The notes under the pieces are model-generated. The model was not told the DNA's origin, did not search any database, and saw only the letters and a list, made by a program, of their open reading frames with translations. From NCBI GenBank assembly GCA_050115675.1, contig JASFQB010000002.1, forward strand, positions 132,376 to 196,375: 64,000 bases of DNA. The letters are read 5' to 3'. Made by a program: the position numbers and the translations under genes. This DNA is from Candidatus Woesebacteria bacterium (GTDB taxonomy: Bacteria > Patescibacteriota > Saccharimonadia > Saccharimonadales > EFPC-124). Of this stretch, positions 8,712 to 37,778 are shown one piece after another (positions within the stretch are counted from its first letter, which is position 1; each line of letters starts with the position of its first letter).

Positions 8712-9719
8712 ATGTCAAATCCGATTCATGTAAAATCAATTGCCTACGGCGTATCCGAGTGCGACCCAATTGAGCTAGCACGCTCCGTAGACGACACTAG
8801 GCGGCTCGTTTTTCTGCCTATCATCCATAATAACAAGGAGAAAAATGGCGCCGTTACCGGTACTTTTGTATATCAGCGCAAATTAAAAACCGATAAGTGG
8901 GACAAGGTGCCGTCGGGGGACGAACAGCTTAGTAGGCTTAAAGCTGGCGAAGGATATCGATTGGAGCTAAGCACCGATGCGGTTACTAAATTAGTCTCCA
9001 GTCTTATGGAAATCGAAAGCATTGCTGAACAGGTTCGTAGTGGATCAACTAACACTACATTTGTGCCTACGGCAAATGATCTGGCTCCATTACTTACATA
9101 GTTACTAGAGAGTCTTGGCGATAAAGAGGCTTTGGCAGAAATATCTAGGTTAGGCAAAGAAAACGCTCTTCGCCTAAACGACCTAATCCTGAACGCGCGA
9201 ATCCGCTCTGCCCTTAAATATTGGCAAGAGCACAAGGATGACGCAGACGAAGAAGCTTGGCAACGATTTTTTAGTAATCGGCCCTGGATACTGTCTCTGA
9301 TATCGCCAGAACCTATCGTAATTCTCAAGGATAAAATGTACGTTGGCGGAACAAATGCGTCCGCGAAGGGCGGCAAAACGGTAGATTATGGCTTAATTAA
9401 TAAGCAGACAAATAATACGGCACTCTTAGAAATCAAGACGCCAAAAACGCAGCTTTTAGGAAGCGAATACAGGGGTGTCTTTCCGCTCTCTAATGCCTTG
9501 TCAGGATCAATCCTTCAAGTCTAGACTTACAAATATAATCTAATCAAGAACCTTCCTACGCTCAAAGAAGATTTCGGATTTTTCGAAGCAGCAAATGTTG
9601 CTACTTATGTCCTAGCTGGCAATACAACACAGTTAACGGATGAGACTCAAAAACGCTGCTTTGAACTGGGACGCAAGCCTAGAATTCGTCAAGCGTATCT
9701 TCCTCTTCGTCGTCATTAA
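8712..9719 (+). pseudogene. Shedu-like DUF4263 (SduA-type) nuclease gene, two in-frame TAGs and truncated C-terminus
   Basis: EEAWQRFFSNRPWIL...GKTVDYGLI...ALLEIKTPKTQLL...SGSILQV*TYKYNL...TYVLAGN matches the DUF4263 D...E-x-K...Q core. TAGs at 9099-9101 and 9522-9524. The usual C-terminal TYDeL segment is missing. Confidence 0.65.
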
Positions 9720-9855
9720 GCTGCAAAAGTAGCGTAAAGAAATCTACGAGTCCATCCCCAATTTCTTTGACTTCTTCAAGCGCATAGCTTCGCCCATCCT
9801 GCTTTTCTAAAATCAAACGTAGCTCCTCGTACTTTTCATCGCTAATTTCGGCCAT
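9679..9855 (-). CDS. Small very acidic protein (58 aa), below the ORF-track cutoff
   Basis: MAEISDEKYEELRLILEKQDGRSYALEEVKEIGDGLVDFFTLLLQLNDDEEEDTLDEF. Its 5' end and upstream region are duplicated at 18602-18633, where the copy is truncated (MSEISDKKC*). Confidence 0.4.
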   Translation of the reverse strand: MAEISDEKYEELRLILEKQDGRSYALEEVKEIGDGLVDFFTLLLQLNDDEEEDTLDEF

Positions 9856-9950
9856 AGCAAACCCTGCCGATCATGACATAAAAGGTTTGGACTACGTCCT
9901 TCCTCGCCAGCCATGGAAAATGACACATGCACAAGTATGTGTCATTTTTT
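9836..9950 (+). repeat. Third junction copy: ~80-bp direct repeat containing a degenerate tRNA-Gln 3' end plus hairpin terminator
   Basis: gtccttcctcgccagccatg matches tRNA gtccctcctccccagccatg at 18/20. It is followed by aaaatgacacat-gcacaagt-atgtgtcatttttt. 9836-9918 aligns with 18602-18686 at about 75%. Confidence 0.65.
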
Positions 9951-10018
9951 ATGACAGATCATAATAGCTGAGTTGAAGCTATTCTTATACTCCTGTTTCT
10001 AAGATATACTATCAACAT

Positions 10019-10852
10019 ATGAATAGCCCAAGGCTTATCTCTACTTATCTGCTTGATGGGTCAATTGAAGGTGTGCGGATTATTGAACTGTCTGAAAGCT
10101 CAATTAAGGCTTTTGTTATCCCGCGTATCAAGCTCAACGACGTTAAAACGCGCGATGAAATAAATTGGCCAGCACTGTATCTGCTCATAAATTCCGGCGA
10201 CAACCAGCTTTACATTGGTGAAAGCGAAAAATTTTATGACCGCGTTAAAAATCACGATCAGTCCAAAGACTTTTGGGACGTAGTAGTTGCTATCGTGTCT
10301 AGTAATAATTCACTAGAGAAAAGTGATGTAAAATACCTTGAAAGCCTCGCGGTTAAAAAAGCCAAAACAACCGCGGCTATGGAAGTGCTAAATAAAACCG
10401 TACCTGTGCGCAATAACATACATGAGTTTAAGATTCACTCGTTGGAAAAAACTTTGGAAGATGTCGCGCTAATTGCCGAGAGTTTAGGTTATAGTATATT
10501 TAGGTCTGAAAATATAACCGCCGCCAGCACTTGGTATGTTAAAGCCAAAAAAACCGACGCCAAGGCCGAGTTTCGTGGTGATAAATTTGTAATTATAGCC
10601 GGCTCTAAAATAGACAAGAGCGTAGCCCTAAGCTTCAAAAAAGGTTGGCCAAAACGCTATCTAGAAAGAGAAGAAATACTTACAAAGGCCAAAGATCACG
10701 GCGACCACGTAGTGCTTTTAGAGAATATACCGTTTAAAAGTCCTAATTTGGCATCAGATTTTGCAACTGGCAGATCTACGAATACCTGGATTACCTGGAA
10801 GAACAAAGACGGAAAGACTATGGATGAAGTTATACGAAAAGGAGAATCATGA
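10019..10852 (+). CDS. GIY-YIG nuclease domain / DUF4357 protein
   Basis: [28 protein letters not shown] (GIY-YIG-like core). The C-terminal [18 protein letters not shown] is typical of DUF4357. ATGA overlap with hsdM. Confidence 0.65.
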
Positions 10853-12411
10853 GCAGTAGCCATAACAATCAGCGGTCAGAATTACATCGCGCCATTTGGC
10901 AGATCGCCAATGACGTGCGTGGCGCAGTTGACGGCTGGGATTTTAAGCAATACGTGCTTGGTGCGCTTTTTTACCGCTTCATTAGCGAAAACTTTGCTGC
11001 TTATATTGAGGCCGACGATGCAAGCATTAATTACGCCAGTATGCCCGACGACGTTATCGCCCCTGAAATCAAAGACGACGCCATCAAGACGAAAGGCTAC
11101 TTCATCTACCCCAGCCAACTGTTTGTTAATGTGGCGAAGAATGCCCACGACAACGAAAGCCTCAATACGGATCTAGCTAAGATATTTTCTAGCATAGAAT
11201 CATCGGCCAACGGCTATCCGTCGGAGCAGGACATTAAGGGCCTGTTCGCAGACTTTGATACTACCAGCAACCGGCTTGGCAATACTGTTGCAGCCAAGAA
11301 CGCTCGGCTAGAGCGAGTGCTTAAGGGTGTAGCGGGTCTTAAGTTTGGCGATTTTCACGGCAGTGAGATTGATCTTTTTGGTGACGCATACGAGTTCTTG
11401 ATCTCAAACTACGCTGCCAATGCGGGTAAGTCCGGAGGCGAGTACTTCACGCCGCAAAACGTGTCCAAGCTTATCGCCCAACTAGCCCTTCATAAACAAG
11501 AGAATGTCAACAAGATTTACGACCCTGCTTGCGGTTCTGGCTCCCTTCTTTTGCAAGCCAAGAAGCAGTTTGACGCCCACATCGTCGAAGAAGGTTTCTT
11601 TGGCCAAGAGCTTAATCACACCACTTACAACCTAGCACGCATGAACATGTTTCTGCACAACATAAACTACGACAAGTTTAATATCCAGCTGGGCGACACA
11701 CTTATTGACCCACACTTTGGTAGCGACAAGCCATTCGACGCCATCGTGTCCAATCCGCCATACTCCGTACATTGGAAAGGCTCCGATAATCCAACACTTA
11801 TCAATGACGATCGCTTTGCGCCTGCTGGTGTTTTAGCACCCAAGTCAAAGGCAGACTTTGCTTTTGTGCTGCACGCTTTAAGCTACCTTTCTGGCAAAGG
11901 TCGCGCGGCGATTGTGTGTTTCCCAGGCATATTCTACCGCGGTGGTGCCGAACAGAAAATTCGGCAATATTTGGTAGACAATAACTATGTTGAGGCGGTC
12001 ATATCGCTGGCGCCTAACCTGTTTTTTGGAACAACCATTGCAGTAAACATCCTGGTACTTGCCAAGAACAAGCTCAATACTAGTACGCTGTTCATTGATG
12101 CTAGCGGCGAAGAGTTTTTCAAAAAAGCTACCAACAACAATGTTATGTTGGATGAACATATCGCCAAGATCGTGGGGATGTTTGATAGTAAAGAAGATGT
12201 TGAATATATAGCAAGGTCCGTAACGTATGAAGATATCGTCCAAAACGATTACAACTTGTCCGTTAGCTCCTATGTCGAAGCCAGAGATAATCGCGAAGTT
12301 GTTAACATTGCCGAGCTGAATGAAGAAATAAAAACCACTGTTGGCAAGATAGACCAGCTCAGGAGCGATATAGATAAAATTGTGGCGGAGATCGAGGGCG
12401 GTAAACAATGA
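10849..12411 (+). CDS. hsdM: Type I restriction-modification system, DNA methyltransferase subunit
   Basis: N-terminal HsdM_N pattern ([10 protein letters not shown]...[13 protein letters not shown]), AdoMet motif [10 protein letters not shown], catalytic VSNPPYS. Confidence 0.9.
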
Positions 12412-13244
12412 AAAGCAAAATCCAACTATTCCAAGACCAGCAAGTACGAACCGCATGGAACGTAGACAAAGAAGAATGGCTTTTGTCTGTAGTTGATGTT
12501 ATAAGAATACTAACCGACCAGCCAGACCACCAATCCGCACGAAACTATTGGAAGGTGCTAAAAAATAGAATACAAAAAGAAAGTGGCCAACCGGTTACAA
12601 AACGTAACCAGTTGAAAATGCGAGCCGAAGATGGCAAAATGCGCCTAACCGATGTGGCGAATCAACAAGAGTTATTGCGCATCATTCAATCAGTACCAAG
12701 TAAAAAAGCAGAGCCGTTCAAGCAATGGCTAGCGCAGGTCGGTGCAGATAGATTGGATGAAATTCAAAATCCAGAACTGGCCATAGATCGCGCCATGATA
12801 TACTATCGCAACTTAGGCTACGACGAGGGCTGGATAAATGCTTGCTTGCAGTCCATACAATTCCGCAAAGAACTTACCGACGAATGGAAACGCACTGGCG
12901 TCAAAGAAGGCCAAGAGTACGCAATGCTTACTAATATTATGGTACAGGGTTGGTCCGGTAAAACAATCAAAGATTATAAGCAGTTCAAGGGGCTCAAAAA
13001 AGAAAACTTACGCGACAATATGACGAGCCTTGAGCTTGCGCTCAATATCTTGGCAGAAACTACGGCAACAGAGCTATCAAAAACTAGTGATCCGCAGGGC
13101 GTCGCTGCCCAAAAAGACATATCTCAACGCAGCGGGAAAATAGCTGGTGATGCGCGTAAGAATATCGAAAGCCAAACTGGACAGAGTGTCATAAGCCCAC
13201 AAAATGCCAAAGATTTACGATTAGGCGAAGGCAATAGAAAATGA
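12408..13244 (+). CDS. Bro-N domain protein (phage antirepressor-like) inserted in the R-M operon
   Basis: [29 protein letters not shown] fits Bro-N. ATGA overlaps at both ends. Flanked by a duplicated hsdM 3' end. Confidence 0.6.
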
Positions 13245-13298
13245 GCAAGATAAACAGTCCAAGGAGCGATATAGACAAAATTGTGGCGGAGATCGAGG
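13245..13298 (+). repeat. Duplicated copy of the hsdM 3' terminus (insertion scar)
   Basis: 13262-13298 aggagcgatatagacaaaattgtggcggagatcgagg vs 12361-12397 (36/37). Looser similarity extends back to 12344/13245. Confidence 0.8.
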
Positions 13299-13299
13299 C

Positions 13300-14307
13300 A
13301 TGAGCCAAGAAATCCAATTCCTGATATACAGCACGCCACAAGAAGACATTAAAGTTGATGTGGTAATGCGCGATGAAACCATCTGGCTTACGCAAAAAGC
13401 CATGGCGGCATTGTTTGATGTGCAAGTTCCCGCCATTGCCAAGCATCTAAAAAGTATCTTTGAAGACGGAGAGTTGCAGACAGAATCAACTATTTCCAAA
13501 ATGGAAATAGTTCAAAACGAAGGCCAACGTGAGGTCAAAAGATTTATAGAATTTTACAACCTCGATGCCATAATATCCGTTGGCTATCGGGTGAACTCGG
13601 CCAAAGCGACTCAGTTTAGAATTTGGGCAACCAAAACGCTTAAAGAATTTATCCAAAAAGGTTTTGTGCTGGATGACGAACGCTTAAAACAAGGCGAGCA
13701 AGTATTTGGCAAAGATTACTTCCGTGAACTGTTAGACCGCGTTCGCTCCATCCGTGCCAGCGAACGACGCATTTGGCAACAAATTACCGACATCTTTGCC
13801 GAATGCAGTATCAACTACAATCGCAATTCGCCCGTTACAAAAGAGTTTTATGCGATGGTGCAAAACAAGTTTCATTTTGCCATTGCGAGTCAAACAGCTG
13901 CCGAGATCGTTTATGCCAAATCAGATCGGCACAAAGACCATATGGGGCTTGCGACGTGGAAAAACGCACCAGATGGGCGGGTGTTAAAATCTGACGTGAC
14001 AATTGCCAAAAACTATTTGCCCGAAAAAGAGATTAAACGACTCGAACGTGCCGTAACAGGATATTTTGATTACATCGAAGATTTGATCGAACGCGAAAAT
14101 ACATTCACCATGGAACAGTTCGCGCAGAGCGTAAATGAATTCCTGGCTTTTAGAAAATATCAGATTCTAGATGGCAAAGGTACGATTTCTAAGCAACGAG
14201 CTAGCAAAAAAGCCGAGGCCGAATACGACGCATTTAACAAAACCCAAAAAATCATTTCTGACTTTGATAAAACCGTTAAGGCACTTGAGAAAGAAGGTGG
14301 CGTATGA
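13300..14307 (+). CDS. RhuM family protein
   Basis: IVQNEGQREVKRFIEFYNLDAIISVGYRVNSAKATQFRIWATKTLKEFIQKGFVLDDERLK is the characteristic RhuM core. Confidence 0.8.
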   Translation: MSQEIQFLIYSTPQEDIKVDVVMRDETIWLTQKAMAALFDVQVPAIAKHLKSIFEDGELQTESTISKMEIVQNEGQREVKRFIEFYNLDAIISVGYRVNSAKATQFRIWATKTLKEFIQKGFVLDDERLKQGEQVFGKDYFRELLDRVRSIRASERRIWQQITDIFAECSINYNRNSPVTKEFYAMVQNKFHFAIASQTAAEIVYAKSDRHKDHMGLATWKNAPDGRVLKSDVTIAKNYLPEKEIKRLERAVTGYFDYIEDLIERENTFTMEQFAQSVNEFLAFRKYQILDGKGTISKQRASKKAEAEYDAFNKTQKIISDFDKTVKALEKEGGV

Positions 14308-15479
14308 GCCAGCCTGGCTTTTTAGAAAAGTTGCTTGATGATGCCGACGTAGAGCGGCTACCTTTAGGTGATGTAGTCAAACTTCAGAGAGGCAAAAGGC
14401 TTGTGCGAAGTCAACTGGATGAAGTCGGTAAATATGCTGTATACCAAAATAGCATGAAGCCGCTGGGTTATTATCACGAAAGTAATGTTGAGGCCGATAC
14501 AACATTTATTATATGCGCTGGCGCAGCAGGTGAGATTGGCTATAGTGATGTCAATTTTTGGGCAGCGGATGATGTTTACATCTGCTTAACGCCAAATAAT
14601 CTATTGAGTAGGTATTTATACCATTTTTTGTTGGACCAAAAGAGTACTATTCTATCTCAGGTTCGCAAGGCAAGTATTCCGCGTCTATCCAAAACAGCGA
14701 TTGAAAAGCTGCAAATCCCAATCCCATGCCCAGATGATCCGGAAAAATCGTTGGCTATTCAAGCAGAGATTGTACGTGTGCTAGACTTGTTTACAGAGCT
14801 AGAAGCAGAGCTAGAAGCAGAGCTAGAAGCAGAGCTAGAAGCACGTAAAAAGCAATACAACCACTACCGCGATCAACTTCTCACTTTTGGGCCAAGTGTT
14901 GAACGGATCAGCCTAGCTGATGTTGGCAAAATATCTATGTGCAGACGTATATTTAAAAACGAAACTTCACCCGATGATGGGATTCCTTTTTTCACAATTG
15001 GCACATTCGGGAAAAAGGCAGCTTTCTACATATCCAGAGAACGATTTGGGACCTACAAGAGTAAGTACTCATATCCTAAAGTTGGAGATATTCTTTTGTC
15101 TGCTTCAGGAACGATAGGAAGGCGAGTCATATTTGATGGCTCAGATTCATACTTTCAAGATTCAAATATTATCTGGATTGATAATGATGAAAGTAAAGTT
15201 CTAAATAAATTCCTCTTCTACCTTTACGAAATTATCACATGGGAGACTGAGGGCGGAACAATTAAACGGCTTTACAACCGCAATATTAAAAAAATTGAAA
15301 TACCAGTTCCGCACCTCAAAGAACAGGCGCGAATCGTAGGCATTCTTGATAAGTTCGACACACTGGCCAATTCAATTAGTGCGGGTCTACCGAGAGAAAT
15401 TGAACTGCGCCAAAAACAATATCGATATTACCGAGATTTATTATTTAGTTTTTTAACAAAAAAGGAACAAAATGACTGA
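14304..15479 (+). CDS. hsdS: Type I restriction-modification system, specificity subunit
   Basis: Two variable target-recognition regions are separated by the central conserved helix ([13 protein letters not shown]...[15 protein letters not shown]). Distal conserved region [15 protein letters not shown]...[16 protein letters not shown]. Confidence 0.85.
14796..14843 (+). repeat. Perfect 12-bp x4 tandem repeat (gagctagaagca = ELEA) in the hsdS central helix
   Basis: Read directly: four identical in-frame units at 14796-14843. Confidence 0.95.
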
Positions 15480-18400
15480 AGAAACAAACCCCATTGCTGA
15501 ATCTAAACGGTTCGTCATATTAGACAAGTACGTCAAACAATGGGTGCCGGTCGAGAGCTATCAAAGCGAGGCGGATCTAGAGCGCGAGCTCGTTAAGGAC
15601 TTAATGAGCCAAGGCTATGATTTGGCTGCTGAAATAACCTCTCCTGAGGTGATGCTTGGCAATGTGCGTTTGCAGTTGCAGTCGCTGAACGATGTGCAGT
15701 TTACGGATGCGGAGTGGGCTCGCTTTGTAGAAACGTATCTGGATAAGCCAAGCGACACTATTACCGATAAAACCAGAAAGATTCACGACGATCACATTTA
15801 TGATTTTGTGTTTGACGACGGCCGCATACAAAACATACAACTCCTGGACAAGGCAAATATATCACGCAATAAAGTGCAAGTTATAAAGCAGTTTGAGCAA
15901 ACAGGATCACATGCTAATCGCTACGACGTGACCATTCTCGTTAATGGGCTGCCATTGGTGCAGATCGAGCTAAAAAAGCGTGGCGTTGCTATACGCGAGG
16001 CCTTCAACCAGGTACACCGCTACAGCAAGGAAAGCTTCAACAGCGACCAGTCGTTGTACAAATACTTGCAGCTATTCGTCATCTCCAATGGAACTGACAC
16101 TCGCTACTTTGCCAACACTACCAGGCGCGACAAGAACAGTTTTGATTTTACTATGAACTGGGCAACTGTCGACAACAGCCCTATTAAAGATCTCAAAGAT
16201 TTTACCGCCACGTTCTTTCAGCCGCGCACACTCCTAAAAGTATTGCTGCATTACTCGGTATTTGATGCGAGAGACACCCTGCTTATAATGCGCCCTTATC
16301 AGATTGCCGCAACCGAGCGTATCATCTGGAAGGTCAATAGTTCGCATCAGGCAAAAACCTGGAGCAAGCCAGAGAGCGGCGGTTTTGTCTGGCACACAAC
16401 TGGATCTGGCAAAACATTGACCAGCTTTAAGGCGGCACGCATGGCAACCGAACTTGATTGTATAGACAAGGTGTTTTTTGTGGTTGACAGAAAAGATTTG
16501 GACTACCAAACCATGAAAGAATACCAGCGTTTCTCGCCCGACAGTGTGAACGGATCTGACAGTACTGCAGGACTTAAACGTAATCTAGACAAAGACGACA
16601 ACAAGATCATCGTTACCACCATCCAAAAGCTCAATAATCTGATGAAGGGCGAGGCTGACTTGCCCGTATATGACCAACAAGTAGTGTTCATTTTTGATGA
16701 ATGTCACCGTAGCCAGTTTGGTGAGGCGCAGAAGAATCTACGAAAGAAATTTAGGTCATACTACCAGTTTGGTTTTACTGGCACGCCAATAATGCCAGAA
16801 AACGCTTTGGGCGCGGAGACGACTGCTAGTGTGTTTGGTCGAGAGCTACACTCTTATGTGATAACCGATGCAATCCGTGACGAGAAGGTGCTGAAGTTTA
16901 AAGTTGACTACAACGACGTACGCCCTAAATTTAAGAGTGTGGAGTCCGAGCAAGACTTGAAGAAACTCACTGCTGCCGAGAACAAGAAAGCACTCTTACA
17001 CCCTGAAAGGATCCAGGAGATATCGCAGTATATTCTAAGTAATTTCCGCCAAAAAACCCACCGAACATATGGGGCAAACAAGGGGCTCAACGCAATGTTT
17101 GCAGTGAGCAGTGTAGAGGCCGCCAAGCTGTATTATGAGATGCTAAACAAGTTGCAAGCCAACAGCGATAGGACTCTCAAGATCGCCACAATATTCTCAT
17201 TTGCGGCCAATGAAGAGCAGGACGCCATTGGCGACATCCAAGATGAAAGCTTCGACGTGTCTGCGATGAACAGCAGTGCCAAAGAGTTTTTGAACTCCGC
17301 AATCAATGACTACAACGCATACTTCAAGACCAACTTCAGTGTGGATAGCAAAGGATTCCAGAACTATTACCGTGACCTTGCTAAGCGCGTTCAATCTCGG
17401 GATATTGATCTGTTGATTGTAGTGGGCATGTTCCTTACGGGTTTTGATGCACCAACGTTAAACACGCTTTTTGTGGACAAAAATCTGCGGTATCACGGTC
17501 TGATGCAAGCGTTCTCGCGCACCAACCGGATTTATGACGCAACGAAAACATTCGGCAATATTGTCACCTTCAGAGATCTCGAAAAGGCCACGATCGATGC
17601 GATCACTCTGTTCGGCGATAAAAATACCAAGAATGTGGTGCTGGAAAAAAGCTACAAAGAGTACATGGACGGTTACAATGACGTTGTAACTGGTGAAGCG
17701 CGTCGTGGTTTTATTGATGTAGTGGCTGAACTTGAAGACCGGTTCCCCGACCCAGCCAATATTGTGTTGGAGGCCGACAAGAAGGCTTTTGCTAAATTGT
17801 TTGGCGAATACCTGCGCGCAGAGAATATCCTCCAGAACTACGACGAATTTGCCAGCTTAAAAGAGTTACAAGACACGGACATAACCAACGATTTGGCACT
17901 AGAGACCTTCAAAGAAAAACACCACTTGACTGATGAAGATCTTGAGATTATGCAAAAAGTGCACATGCCTTCTGAGCGCAAAGTGCAGGACTATCGGTCA
18001 ACGTACAATGATATCCGCGATTGGTTGCGCGAAAAGAAGAATTCTAATGATCAGAGCGAGTCCGCGATTGATTGGGATGATGTAGAGTTTGAGGTTGACC
18101 TCCTGAAATCACAGGAAATCAATCTGGACTACATACTTGAGCAGGTATTTGAAAAGAACAAGAAGATCAAGGACAAGTCAGCTCTTGTTGATGATGTACG
18201 CCGAATAATCAGGTCTAGCATTGGCAACCGGGCAAAAGAAGGCCTGATAGTTGACTTTATAAATCAGACGGATCTTGACCAAATACCAGATAAGGTTGGT
18301 ATTATTGAATCTTTCTTCAAATACGCACAAGTAGAGCAACAACGGGAGGCTGAAGAGCTGATCGCTGCCGAAAACCTAAACGACGAAGCCGCCAGGCGGT

Positions 18401-18573
18401 ATATAAACACCTCGATTAAGCGCGAGTATGCAAGCGATAACGGCACCGAGCTAAACACCCTTCTGCCCAAGATGAGCCCCCTCAATCCAGAATACCTAAC
18501 GAAAAAACAAAGTGTTTTTCAAAAAATAGCGGCATTTGTCGAGAAGTTTAAGGGGATTGGCGGGAGACTTTAA
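15472..18573 (+). CDS. hsdR: Type I restriction enzyme, R (helicase-endonuclease) subunit
   Basis: N-terminal nuclease region ([20 protein letters not shown] = D...E-x-K), Walker [15 protein letters not shown]-type [15 protein letters not shown], later helicase motifs ([19 protein letters not shown]). Confidence 0.9.
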
Positions 18574-18601: not shown

Positions 18602-18686
18602 ACTTTTTGTCGCTAATTTCGGACATAACAAACCCCGTAAAACGTGGCATAAAAAGTTTTGACACTGCCCTTCCTCTTTAGTCATG
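18602..18686 (+). repeat. Fourth junction copy (distal direct repeat of the R-M island)
   Basis: gtcgctaatttcggacataacaaacccc...ataaaaagttttgacactgcccttcctctttagtcatgag aligns with 9836-9918. Confidence 0.6.
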
Positions 18687-34997: not shown

Positions 34998-35456
34998 ATG
35001 GAAGACAAAACTATGCAATCACCTCAAATGTCAATGCAAGAGCAGTCTAAGGCCCCAGGTAAAAACCCGTTGCGCGTGGCGCTACTTATCGCGGTTATAA
35101 TAGTCGCGATAGCCAGTATTATTGCACTGGCGTATGTAATAGTGAATTTTAATGGCGTTGAGACAGTGACTGACGAAACCTTTGGCACGGTTACCATAAC
35201 AGACGATGGCACCACCCCTTCTGCTATAACTATAAAGAGCGGTGAAAGTGTGACTTGGATCAATGATAGTTCTAGTTCTCATTCTTTAGAGATAACATCA
35301 CCAAATATTCCTAGGGAGCTTGAAGGGTTTGGTAGTGACGAACCCATTTTGCAGGAAGAGTCCTATAGTTTTATTTTCGAAGCTGCAGGTACTTTTACTT
35401 ATGATGATCCAAGTAACCCTAGCCTTATTCAGGGAACTATAGTTGTTGAAGAGTAA
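34998..35456 (+). CDS. Membrane-anchored cupredoxin-like small protein
   Basis: TM anchor, then ITIKSGESVTWINDSSSSHSLE...GTFTYDDPSNPSLIQGTIVV (cupredoxin-like beta-sandwich pattern). Confidence 0.45.
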   Translation: MEDKTMQSPQMSMQEQSKAPGKNPLRVALLIAVIIVAIASIIALAYVIVNFNGVETVTDETFGTVTITDDGTTPSAITIKSGESVTWINDSSSSHSLEITSPNIPRELEGFGSDEPILQEESYSFIFEAAGTFTYDDPSNPSLIQGTIVVEE

Positions 35457-35727
35457 AAAAATAAAGGAAAGGCTAGGATAGTATCTTGAATATCATAAAA
35501 AGGTTCCTTACCTATATCAGGCACAACCCATTAGAATCAGCTGCAGCTTTGAGTGTATTTGTGGCTCTTGTTTTGGGAGGTATTGTATTTGTTGCTAGTC
35601 GAGCGGCTTCGTTTTATGCCTATGCGGATGCTTCGCAGGCTAGCGTGGCAGATGGTGCAGAAATTGTCTCGGACTCTTCTGCTATTGGCGGCAAAGCAAT
35701 TCAGTTTGCTAGTGCCTCTACTCAGCC
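35445..35727 (+). repeat. 283-bp direct repeat, copy 1 (RBS, TTG start and first 78 codons of the GH46 gene)
   Basis: No mismatch found on reading against 36550-36832 (offset 1105). The copy starts in the last 12 nt of the cupredoxin-like gene (gttgaagagtaa). Confidence 0.9.
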
Positions 35728-36466
35728 AAGTAATAATGATAATGATAATGATACGGTTGATTTGAGTGACCCGGTTAAAAAAGATATTGCAATGCAGTTG
35801 GTATCGAGTGCAGAAAATTCTTCGCTTGATTGGAAAGCACAATATTCATACATTGAAGACATTGGAGACGGACGTGGTTACACAGCAGGCATCGTTGGGT
35901 TCTGTACTGGATGTGGCGACCTGCTCAAGGTTGTAGAAGTATATGACGGTCTTTCTCCGAATAACGTTCTAAGTAAGTACATTCCTGCTCTTAGAAAAAT
36001 TGGTAGCTGGGACGATACGCATGATGGCCTTGATCCTAACTTTACTAAGGACTGGAAAACTGCTGCGAATGATGAGAAGTTTCGGCAAGCACAGGACATA
36101 GAACGCGATCGAGTATATTTTGATCCCGCTGTCGAGCAGGGTAAAGCTGATGGCTTACGCGCTTTAGGCCAGTTTATATATTATGACGCGCTTGTTATGC
36201 ATGGCCCAGGAGATGACTCGGTCAGCTTCGGCGGTATCCGTGCTACAGCCATGAAAAAAGCGAAAACACCAGCACAAGGTGGCGATGAAGCGACTTATCT
36301 TAATGCCTTTTTAGACGCTCGCGCTGCAGCTATGCGTACCGAGGAAGCCCATAGCGACACTACCCGTGTAGATACCGAACAACGTGTCTTTTTAGATGAC
36401 GGCAACTTCAACTTAGACACACCGCTTAGCTGGAAGGTATACGGTGACAGCTATTCTATTAAGTAA
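35486..36466 (+). CDS. GH46 chitosanase (Streptomyces CsnA-like)
   Basis: VSSAENSSLDWKAQYSYIEDIGDGRGYTAGIVGFC, ERDRVYFDPAV, LRALGQFIYYDALVMHGPG and AHSDTTRVDTEQRVFL are collinear with actinobacterial GH46. TTG start. Confidence 0.85.
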   Translation: MNIIKRFLTYIRHNPLESAAALSVFVALVLGGIVFVASRAASFYAYADASQASVADGAEIVSDSSAIGGKAIQFASASTQPSNNDNDNDTVDLSDPVKKDIAMQLVSSAENSSLDWKAQYSYIEDIGDGRGYTAGIVGFCTGCGDLLKVVEVYDGLSPNNVLSKYIPALRKIGSWDDTHDGLDPNFTKDWKTAANDEKFRQAQDIERDRVYFDPAVEQGKADGLRALGQFIYYDALVMHGPGDDSVSFGGIRATAMKKAKTPAQGGDEATYLNAFLDARAAAMRTEEAHSDTTRVDTEQRVFLDDGNFNLDTPLSWKVYGDSYSIK

Positions 36467-36549: not shown

Positions 36550-36832
36550 GTTGAAGAGTAAAAAAATAAAGGAAAGGCTAGGATAGTATCTTGAATATCA
36601 TAAAAAGGTTCCTTACCTATATCAGGCACAACCCATTAGAATCAGCTGCAGCTTTGAGTGTATTTGTGGCTCTTGTTTTGGGAGGTATTGTATTTGTTGC
36701 TAGTCGAGCGGCTTCGTTTTATGCCTATGCGGATGCTTCGCAGGCTAGCGTGGCAGATGGTGCAGAAATTGTCTCGGACTCTTCTGCTATTGGCGGCAAA
36801 GCAATTCAGTTTGCTAGTGCCTCTATCCAGCC
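36550..36832 (+). repeat. 283-bp direct repeat, copy 2 (5' module of the GH18 gene)
   Basis: See copy 1. This copy retains the orphan gttgaagagtaa remnant of the cupredoxin gene end. Confidence 0.9.
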
Positions 36833-37778
36833 GGAAACAGGTGGTGGAACTACGGGCACTGCCTATCTTAATCCGTATAGCCTTGGTTTGGCGCCATATA
36901 ACTATATTCCATGGGAAGGCTCACTCACTGATTTTAAGAATGCTTCTGGAGTAAGTAACCAAGTGGCAGCGTTTATTATCAGCTCTGGCGGTTGTACGCC
37001 TGCCTGGGATGGTGATTCATCTTTGGGTCTGAGTAGTTCTAGGTCTAATACCATTGCAAGCGAGATATCTAATGTCAGAAACTCTGGTGGTGATGTTATG
37101 ATATCTTTGGGCGGTGCAAGCGGCAACGAGCTTGCCTACTCGTGCAGCAATGCTTCTCAGTTAAAACAAGCTTACATAAGTATTCTAGACAAATATGGCA
37201 TAGACAAGATCGACTTTGACATCGAGGGATCGAATGCTTCAAAAACTTCTGCAAACGCAACTCGTGCAGAGGTAGTTGCTGCTTTGCAACAAGAGCGAGA
37301 CCTAAAGGTTTGGGTGACATTGGCGGTTGAAACTGACGGCCTGACATCAGAAGGCCTTAGCGTAGTTAAACAAATGCGAGAAAAAGGTGTAGCCTTGTCT
37401 GGTATAAACATCATGGCGATGGACTATGGGACCAACACCAAGGATATGGGTGCTGCAGCGGTATCCGCGGCTAACAGTACATTTAGTCAGCTAAAATCAA
37501 TTTATCCAGAAAGTAGCGACTCAGACATCTGGAAAGCTATAGGCGTAACCGCGATGATAGGCATAAATGATACTGAGCCAGAAGCATTTACGCTTGCAAA
37601 TGCCAAGACACTCAAGGATTACGCGGTGCAAAAAGGCATAGGTATGCTTAGCTACTGGAACGTTGCTCGTGACGTGGCCTGTAGCGGCAATAAAGCAATT
37701 CTGAGCGACTCGTGCAGTGGTGTTACGCAAAGCAAATACGACTTTGCTAATGCACTAAACATCTCATCAATTAATTAG
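36591..37778 (+). CDS. GH18 chitinase-like glycoside hydrolase
   Basis: Catalytic DKIDFDIEG (DxxDxDxE). MISLGGASG, AMDYG and SYWNVARD fit the GH18 TIM-barrel strands. N-terminal 78 aa are identical to the GH46 protein. Confidence 0.8.
   Translation: MNIIKRFLTYIRHNPLESAAALSVFVALVLGGIVFVASRAASFYAYADASQASVADGAEIVSDSSAIGGKAIQFASASIQPETGGGTTGTAYLNPYSLGLAPYNYIPWEGSLTDFKNASGVSNQVAAFIISSGGCTPAWDGDSSLGLSSSRSNTIASEISNVRNSGGDVMISLGGASGNELAYSCSNASQLKQAYISILDKYGIDKIDFDIEGSNASKTSANATRAEVVAALQQERDLKVWVTLAVETDGLTSEGLSVVKQMREKGVALSGINIMAMDYGTNTKDMGAAAVSAANSTFSQLKSIYPESSDSDIWKAIGVTAMIGINDTEPEAFTLANAKTLKDYAVQKGIGMLSYWNVARDVACSGNKAILSDSCSGVTQSKYDFANALNISSIN

Follow-up and report, generated by a model that had tools for sequence, protein, structure and literature searches.

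How can a gene come to lie inside an operon whose genes overlap one another, stop on start, without wrecking that operon? The question is raised by a type I restriction-modification (R-M) operon in a 64,000-nucleotide (nt) stretch of DNA from Candidatus Woesebacteria bacterium (contig JASFQB010000002.1, positions 132,376 to 196,375; the whole stretch is called the window), where a gene of the Bro-N family (broN) stands between hsdM and rhuM. Searches for new immune systems now exploit defence genes nested in operons such as R-M and BREX, and the route by which embedded genes enter without destroying their host operon was not described in the papers searched; this locus provides an example at the level of single bases. 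The preferred explanation, to which we assign a probability of about 0.8, is that broN belongs to a cassette inserted from an operon of the form hsdM'-broN-hsdS', with the end of hsdM duplicated by microhomology-guided illegitimate recombination.

The hsdM direct repeat and the junction in relatives

The operon lies on the plus strand and comprises, in order, a GIY-YIG gene, hsdM, broN, a micro-open reading frame (micro-ORF), rhuM, hsdS and hsdR. In each neighbouring pair the stop overlaps the start, as an ATGA at 10849, 12408, 13241, 13300 and 14304 and as an 8-nt overlap at 15472. Positions 12344-12397 (copy 1, plus strand), which are native to the resident hsdM and comprise its codons ..(G), 17 amino acids (aa) and (G), recur in direct orientation at 13245-13298 (copy 2, plus strand). 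The two copies are identical at 47 of 54 positions with a spacing of 901 nt, and the core (12361-12397 against 13262-13298) at 36 of 37; an exact 22-mer (12376-12397 and 13277-13298) lies within it. Only two dispersed exact repeats of at least 20 nt are present in the 64-kb window, the other being an unrelated repeat of 276 nt.

Both copies share the hsdM reading frame. A hidden Markov model of the HsdM C-terminus (last 50 aa, from 118 homologues), run on a six-frame translation of about 1.2 Mb, matches the 21-codon stop-to-stop fragment 13238-13300 with E = 2.9e-6. The initial annotation had reported this repeat and its 36/37 core, and the alignment of the two segments agrees with it, the similarity being significant and in the same frame. 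Its description of the repeat as the last ~54 nt of hsdM needs correction: the repeat does lie within the hsdM 3' end, but the final 14 nt (12398-12411, plus strand; GCGGTAAACAATGA, encoding the tail ..GGKQ*) are unique to copy 1. This new tail holds the Bro-N ATG and appears to be cassette-borne. The mismatches are clustered, five of the seven falling inside one 6-nt patch within the junction zone, where CAGCTC in copy 1 (12355-12360), also the state in the relative L001, is replaced by AGTCCA in copy 2 (13256-13261, plus strand). The patch converts the conserved QL of ..KI(D/N)QLR.. to SP, and copy 2, a relic of the resident hsdM 3' end, is therefore not a functional one.

One might suppose that the repeat is a chance similarity, or an assembly chimera of two co-existing operon variants, because the contig comes from a metagenome-assembled genome (MAG) and repeats of k-mer length can mislead assemblers. 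However, an in-frame match of 36/37 is far beyond chance. The junction from broN into the relic is unique sequence and must exist in the reads, and an independent Logan assembly of run SRR11713588 (L176 among our comparison loci, a 7.3-kb contig) is 100% identical to window positions 9408-14823 (5,416 nt), both copies included, so the structure is not the artefact of a single assembler. The same signature also occurs in the genome of an isolate, Bergeyella zoohelcum ATCC 43767. Chance and assembly error are thus effectively excluded.

Relatives without Bro-N preserve a single hsdM end. Among the C-termini of 118 homologues, the nearest HsdM proteins (89-91% aa identity, 517 aa) end like the micro-ORF and unlike the ..EIEGGKQ of the window. 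In L090, L001 and L009, hsdM ends ..IVAEIEA-TGA with its stop overlapping the next ATG, which belongs to rhuM in L090 and to hsdS in the other two. L090 is an uncultured Rickettsiales MAG that lacks Bro-N and whose HsdM and RhuM are 82% and 85% identical (aa) to those of the window; its hsdM ends ...SKINQLRADIDAIVAEIEA-TGA, and GAGGCATGAGC overlaps the rhuM ATG. The same GAGGCATGAGC junction leads into the next gene in L001 and L009, and L001, L009 and P0002, all ending ..EIEA-TGA, share an identical GAGGCATGAGCCA junction into hsdS. A Bro-N-less relative with an ATGA junction between hsdM and rhuM, as the initial annotation had predicted, is therefore present in L090.

The window retains this junction as GAGATCGAGGCATGAGCCAAG (13289-13309, plus strand), where the hsdM stop overlaps the ATG of the next gene and GGAG/GAGG precedes it. 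Against the corresponding GAGATCGAGGCATGAGCCAGG of L001 the first 19 of 21 nt match, with a difference at 13308, and the stretch is nearly identical in L009 and L090. In blastn alignments, L001, L009 and L090 each have one hsdM end that matches both window copies, with a break at 12397 and a resumption at 13244, and positions 3945-5066 of L090 are collinear with window positions 13244-14371, through the relic, rhuM and the start of hsdS. This is the pattern that an empty site should give, here at 73-81% DNA identity. The proposal that copy 2 reconstructs the ancestral hsdM-rhuM junction is thus supported by a relative that has the same junction and is collinear through rhuM. An ATGA junction between hsdM and rhuM is found in L096 as well, L177 likewise has an ATGA overlap, and hsdM adjoins rhuM with a gap of 0-12 nt in L093, L098, L123, L145, L147, L162 and L169.

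The operons of L001/L002, L009 and the P0002 contig are arranged as (GIY-YIG)-hsdM-hsdS-AAA_13-hsdR, with an ATGA overlap between hsdM and the next gene. L001 and the window agree closely in GIY-YIG (80% aa), HsdM (91%) and HsdR (94%) and have a different middle, which in L001 consists of hsdS and AAA_13. An AAA_13 ATPase gene (~362-398 aa) lies between hsdS and hsdR in L001, in L009 and in L174, whose operon is of the Bro-N type. Evidently, the stretch between hsdM and hsdR is a swap zone.

Origin and probable insertion of the Bro-N cassette

The Bro-N gene (12408-13244, plus strand) encodes 278 aa and matches Pfam Bro-N at residues 12-110 (6.2e-10) and PADLOC family PDC-S13 over its full length (7.8e-120). 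Residues 134-256 show weak similarity to E. coli DinD (NCBIfam NF008573, E = 7e-7, 29 bits against a cutoff of 242), which is a possible lead to the function of the protein. The closest Bro-N proteins are those of L003/L004 (90% aa), L005-L008 (82%) and L172-L175 (77%, the last on many contigs). All of these genes (77-90% aa) occupy the position between hsdM and hsdS in another type I operon family, hsdM(526-534 aa)-broN-hsdS-hsdR(1038-1041 aa), whose HsdM is 55-58% identical to that of the window and in which Bro-N is a regular fourth gene without flanking duplication. Bro-N genes lacking a duplication, which the initial annotation had taken to count against an insertion, are thus literally found in L003-L008 and L172-L175, but they accompany a different hsdM family (57-58% aa); these operons look like the donor type and hence are no counter-example. 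Annotated plasmids contain only distant Bro-N relatives (<60% identity).

The borders of broN in these home operons resemble those in the window. The tails of their hsdM' genes, ..IEGGKNG* in L172-L175 and ..IEGENEK* in L003, contain the bro ATG, as does ..IEGGKQ* in the window. At the other border, the hsdS' start, ATGAGTAA(G/A)ATTGAT (MSKID), also given as ATGAGTAAGATTGAT, overlaps or directly follows the Bro-N stop; the true hsdS of the window has a start of the backbone type and not MSKI. From these likenesses, the cassette would have brought donor hsdM tail codons and, probably, a donor hsdS start. Reading positions 13245-13261 themselves as a donor hsdS start was considered and set aside, because the relic is collinear with hsdM without an insertion or deletion and donor-type starts need a 4-nt length change. 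The Bro-N segment has no anomaly in GC content (0.42-0.46, like its neighbours) or skew, so composition does not help to delimit the insert. Empty-site relatives, together with the foreign affinity of Bro-N, support the claim that this gene entered between hsdM and rhuM with duplication of the hsdM 3' end.

Over its last 300 nt (to 12397), hsdM has 80% identity to L001 and 52% to L003, and the resemblance to L001 does not fall off toward the joint, so that copy 1 is taken as resident sequence; a donor-derived copy 1 is rejected on the same figures. The stretch has no switch toward the Bro-N-type operon, and with the nearest relative at 80%, a donor of the same family could escape notice.

The direction of the event might also be the reverse, with a resident hsdM-broN-hsdS-hsdR operon receiving rhuM together with an hsdM 3'-end stub, in which case copy 2 would be the foreign one. 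Elsewhere rhuM does travel with such stubs: a 230-aa ORF in L092 has HsdM residues 382-517 as its last 136 aa, and rhuM is accompanied by a stub of 37 codons in L155/L156 and of 57 codons in L165. Moreover, rhuM at 85% aa identity stands behind two different hsdM families (L090, L177), and hsdM and broN are adjacent also within the window's own hsdM family (L065/L066). However, the copies agree at 36/37 in the core, whereas the best relatives differ from either by at least 15% (L001, 45-47/55; L090, 38-40/55), so a foreign stub would have to come from a near-identical operon. Furthermore, hsdM, hsdR and the hsdS N-terminus of the window are all of the L001 type, which lacks Bro-N, whereas Bro-N and the GGK tail are of the other family. 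We consider the reversed direction improbable.

Insertion of Bro-N into a resident hsdM-rhuM operon, the preferred reading, would have proceeded as follows. An ancestor with the hsdM/rhuM junction of L090 would have received a piece of ~0.85 kb out of an hsdM'-broN-hsdS' operon, spanning the last donor hsdM' codons (..G-G-K + ATG) to the first donor hsdS' codons (ATG-AGY-AAG-AT, MSKI). Its left end would have joined the recipient after ..GAGATCGAGG (12397) and its right end ~54 nt further upstream, at ..AGCAAGATAAAC (the SKIN codons), and because of this offset the last ~54 nt of the recipient before the old stop would have been doubled. The joints would lie at short stretches in which donor and recipient are similar, ATYGARGG on the left and AGYAAGAT on the right. 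The process was most likely microhomology-guided illegitimate recombination, perhaps by template switching at a fork or by illegitimate joining of one or both ends of incoming DNA, with no transposase or integrase taking part.

Copy 1 would have stayed the working hsdM end, its new GGKQ tail overlapping the Bro-N start, and copy 2 would have become the relic. Both joints would be in frame by happenstance, the relic beginning with the donor ATGA of the broN stop and hsdS start and ending with the recipient ATGA of the hsdM stop and rhuM start. Insertions that destroyed the coupling junction were probably lost to selection, and the locus suggests the idea that only insertions keeping this junction survive. 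A fitting donor would carry ..GGCGGTAAACAATG upstream of Bro-N and ATGAGCAAGATAAACAGTC.. (hsdS start MSKINS..) downstream. Compared with relatives rather than with the actual donor, the left joint reads ATCGAGG(G) in the window against ATCGAGGG in L003 and ATTGAAGG in L172, and the right joint AGCAAGAT against AGTAAGAT in L003.

The insert (12398-13244, 846 nt) contains only the Bro-N ORF, with no transposase and no inverted repeats at its ends, and no recombinase domain was detected in the six large ORFs of the operon, a scan confined to those ORFs and not extended to the rest of the 64-kb window. A transposon or insertion sequence with target-site duplication is rejected because transposase and terminal inverted repeats are lacking and because the duplication varies in length (54 nt in this operon, 27-167 nt in those described below). 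An integrase island with duplication of attachment (att) sites is likewise rejected, there being no recombinase in the operon ORFs and no conserved att core.

Several observations weigh against this history or blur its details. With the nearest available Bro-N operon at 76% DNA identity, the joints can be located only approximately, and the microhomologies are read from relatives and not from the donor itself. Neither parent explains the 6-nt patch at 13256-13261, part of which would be accounted for if the donor hsdS began MS.(I/L)DSL like that of L170 (GACAGTC). The copies also disagree at three isolated positions, where it is copy 2 that shows the L001 state (AGC, AAC, GAC), and either copy 1 changed later or two slightly different hsdM alleles were involved. 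The same product is expected from template switching, from a staggered break with fill-in and from integration of a circle by a single crossover. A fresh copy of coding sequence would in any case be expected to have an open frame of 20 codons. Finally, such a duplicate is present in only 3-4 of the ~20 lineages examined in which Bro-N or rhuM is embedded in an R-M operon, and duplication of the hsdM end is therefore one route in and not the sole one.

The micro-ORF (13241-13303, plus strand) has the 20 codons that had been proposed, overlapping broN (13241-13244) and rhuM (13300-13303) with an ATGA at either end. The source pipelines do not annotate it, and in L176, too, the interval between Bro-N and rhuM is without a gene call. 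It begins ATGAGCAAGAT, which is similar to ATGAGTAAGAT (MSKID), the start of the donor-type hsdS behind Bro-N in L003 and L172-L175; after the Bro-N stop, the window reads ATGAGCAAGATAAAC (MSKIN). The micro-ORF is probably a chimera, composed of the donor ATGA between broN and hsdS', the recipient's last ~15 hsdM codons in frame, and the ATGA between hsdM and rhuM. Both overlaps are best taken for native junctions that were inherited, probably from the donor in the case of broN/hsdS' and from the recipient in that of hsdM/rhuM. As a chimera of two native junctions, it would be coupled at both ends without later adaptation.

The relic keeps the GGAG/GAGG ribosome-binding context ahead of rhuM. 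Translational coupling through the micro-ORF, from relic to rhuM, is plausible. Judging from the unbroken chain of overlapping stops and starts, rhuM, hsdS and hsdR probably stay translationally coupled. The relic region is predicted to fold no better than shuffled sequences (z = -0.39), as is the region of copy 1 (z = +0.85), and neither gives a sign of an attenuator or terminator. From hsdM to hsdR, no plus-strand terminator is found save for weak matches inside hsdM, and promoter-like sites are fewer than in shuffles.

Related scars at other loci

Duplicated gene ends accompany embedded genes at several other loci. In Bergeyella zoohelcum ATCC 43767 (L120), the end of hsdM is duplicated over 44 nt around rhuM (40/44 identical, of which 32 nt are exact), with a score reached by none of 500 shuffles. 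The second copy lies in a 19-codon ORF, MKTKLCNQIDEIIAQLETV*, just before a gene for a Fic-family protein. In L156, a gene for a YhcG/DUF1016 PDDEXK nuclease stands between 167-nt repeats (97% identical) that hold an orphan hsdM-end relic upstream of rhuM. L155 has one copy and no YhcG gene, and is 98.6% identical to L156 downstream of the insert and ~92% upstream of it; no hsdM gene was detected in the fetched locus. An MmeI-like gene precedes rhuM in L180-L182, where 27 nt from the end of that gene recur (24/27) just downstream of rhuM. Thus, the same scar occurs at no fewer than three loci besides this one, and for one of these a near-identical empty site exists. Cassette gain might be dated and traced by searching for this signature.

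These cases raise the question of whether the cassettes have a dedicated means of mobility, either a specific recombination system or circles formed through the flanking repeats, with att-like repeats and precise excision. In a direct-repeat survey of two unbiased locus sets, with 135 Bro-N or rhuM genes and 333 control ORFs from the same loci, direct repeats of 26-137 nt bracket 10/135 Bro-N or rhuM genes and 4/333 controls (Fisher p = 0.001), and three of the four positive controls are defence-type genes (YhcG, Abi-alpha/DUF2806 and Fic). However, the repeats consist of local target sequence of 26-167 nt with no motif common between loci, and no recombinase gene was found in or beside the window cassette among the operon ORFs scanned. 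The survey set is also mixed, including integrase att sites at the 3' ends of tRNA genes (L087, L092), palindromic intergenic repeats (L010, L012) and a degenerate case (L021). It was therefore treated as a lead only, and its use as proof of one mechanism is weakened by the several kinds of repeats. Dedicated mobility appears quite improbable, and illegitimate recombination remains the preferred reading.

A broader generalization is that duplication of the upstream 3' end is a general, integrase-free mode of entry for single-gene cassettes (Bro-N, RhuM, YhcG, Fic, Abi-alpha), in which coupling is kept and the cassette can be excised and re-inserted. This we regard as unlikely. If true, the 30-170-nt repeats would make the cassettes precisely excisable and re-insertable, and R-M operons would resemble integron-style arrays that operate without an integrase. 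The relic micro-ORF would then act as a coupling relay or, more speculatively, as a peptide mimic of the HsdM C-terminal helix.

Two of the surveyed loci have a distinct architecture. L092 (2294-5878), in a Pseudobdellovibrionaceae MAG, is a small integrative island at the 3' end of a tRNA-Glu gene, bounded by perfect 44-nt repeats. It encodes a tyrosine integrase, then an ORF that fuses a TIR domain to the last 136 HsdM residues, and then rhuM, with an ATGA junction; here, an hsdM stub is recruited into a new protein. L087 (3559-4989) has a Bro-N gene within a segment of 1.3 kb bounded by perfect 45-nt repeats, the first of which overlaps the 3' end of a tRNA-Arg gene, and the segment looks like a minimal att-flanked island without an integrase.

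The operon, its surroundings and known systems

The genes hsdM, hsdS and hsdR lie on one strand in an overlapping chain, 10849-18573, recognized by Pfam and NCBIfam, and broN and rhuM are nested between hsdM and hsdS. The hsdM gene (10849-12411, plus strand, 520 aa) encodes a methyltransferase with Pfam N6_Mtase (2.9e-116) and HsdM_N, scores 651 bits against NCBIfam TIGR00497 (cutoff 243), and matches the EcoR124II M protein, PDB 7BST, over residues 6-517 (E = 2e-272). Because HsdM is very close to the EcoR124II M subunit, the system is classed as EcoR124-like type I R-M. The hsdR gene (15472-18573, plus strand, 1033 aa) encodes Pfam HSDR_N, SWI2_SNF2, T1R_D3-like and EcoR124_C (1.8e-69) domains, and its 94% aa identity to L001 was obtained with tblastn. 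The hsdS gene (14304-15479, plus strand, 391 aa) matches Pfam Methylase_S in two stretches and, when N-termini are compared, has one of the backbone type. Its central region (14794-14841) holds four copies of a 12-nt tandem repeat, CAGAGCTAGAAG, encoding ELEA repeats. EcoR124I and EcoR124II differ in how many copies of a comparable 12-bp repeat they have, and this number determines the spacer length of the recognition site.

First in the operon is the GIY-YIG/DUF4357 gene (10019-10852, plus strand, 277 aa; Pfam DUF4357 1.2e-11, PADLOC PDC-S14 1.2e-71), which overlaps the hsdM start and is ATGA-coupled to it, and which in L001/L002 (80% aa) also lies upstream of hsdM. The rhuM gene (13300-14307, plus strand, 335 aa; Pfam Virulence_RhuM 1.8e-104, PADLOC PDC-S05 2.8e-156) is ATGA-coupled to hsdS. 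Thus, all three accessory proteins match PADLOC candidate families (PDC-S14, PDC-S13 and PDC-S05), for which a defence role is a candidate role only. The rhuM start (13300-13308, ATGAGCCAA) and the hsdS start (14304-14312, ATGAGCCAG) both encode MSQ, which is also the hsdS start in L001 and L009; other rhuM genes begin MSK or MNK. The shared starts may be a faint older scar of the entry of rhuM at an hsdM/hsdS junction, or may reflect a single-base change.

The whole R-M operon is flanked by a direct repeat of 85 nt (75% identical) at 9831-9915 and 18602-18686. Read on the minus strand, the upstream copy is the beginning of an intact gene of 58 aa (MAEISDEKYEEL..) together with its 5' region, and the downstream copy, directly adjoining the hsdR end, is a truncated relic (MSEISDKKC*). 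The entire operon may have been inserted with a target duplication, leaving the same kind of scar at a larger scale. Through the perfect 276-nt direct repeat (35445-35720 and 36550-36825), two adjacent genes have the same upstream region and the same first ~78 codons (signal/N-terminal), one of them GH46 chitosanase-like (35486-36466) and the other GH18 chitinase-like (36591-37778); the repeat is a further recent duplication of a gene 5' end beside a different gene body. Although databases assign the source MAG to Candidatus Woesebacteria, the nearest relatives of every operon gene are found in Rickettsiales, Holosporales, Methylococcaceae and other unrelated MAGs, and the operon is clearly horizontally mobile.

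In its core, the system resembles those of the EcoR124I/II type, as its HsdM matches 7BST, its HsdR has EcoR124_C and its hsdS has a central 12-nt tandem repeat. It also resembles EcoprrI, a Type IC system in which prrC is embedded, according to a 2025 review (PMC12707154), in that extra genes of the defence type lie inside the hsd operon. In contrast to EcoprrI, the embedded genes encode Bro-N, RhuM and GIY-YIG/DUF4357 proteins and not PrrC, and the window has an insertion scar; no such scar was described for prrC in the papers searched. Frequent embedding of genes in type I R-M systems has been reported in the 'guilt by embedding' preprint (bioRxiv 10.1101/2024.01.29.577857), the text of which makes no mention of recombination or of an insertion route for embedded genes, and RhuM-like genes in R-M operons or neighbourhoods were noted earlier (Biol Direct 2013, PMC3710099). 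Catalogues such as the PADLOC PDC families and that preprint list genes, and the window adds the anatomy of the junctions and their recurrence.

The proposed mechanism likewise has precedents. Homology-facilitated and microhomology-mediated illegitimate recombination is known in bacteria (PLoS One 2011, PMC3240628), as are merodiploids generated by transformation (PMC3784515). The history proposed for the window would share with these the entry of foreign DNA without a transposase or integrase, short similar stretches at the joints, and a duplication of recipient sequence at the insert. In classic homology-facilitated recombination, one long homologous anchor is combined with one illegitimate end, whereas in the window both ends appear illegitimate, because the resident hsdM looks native up to the joint. 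Integron cassettes and att duplications made by integrases are similar in presenting a promoterless single-gene unit in an expressed array, direct repeats, and a second copy that restores the 3' end of the target. Unlike these, the Bro-N cassette carries no attC-like element and has no conserved core, no integrase was detected among the operon ORFs scanned, and the repeat is local hsdM sequence. No description of hsdM-end duplications was found in the literature searched. The gene content is not new, since embedded genes in type I systems are already in the literature; the locus is a new and well-resolved example of known processes, namely the embedding of defence candidates and illegitimate recombination with target duplication.

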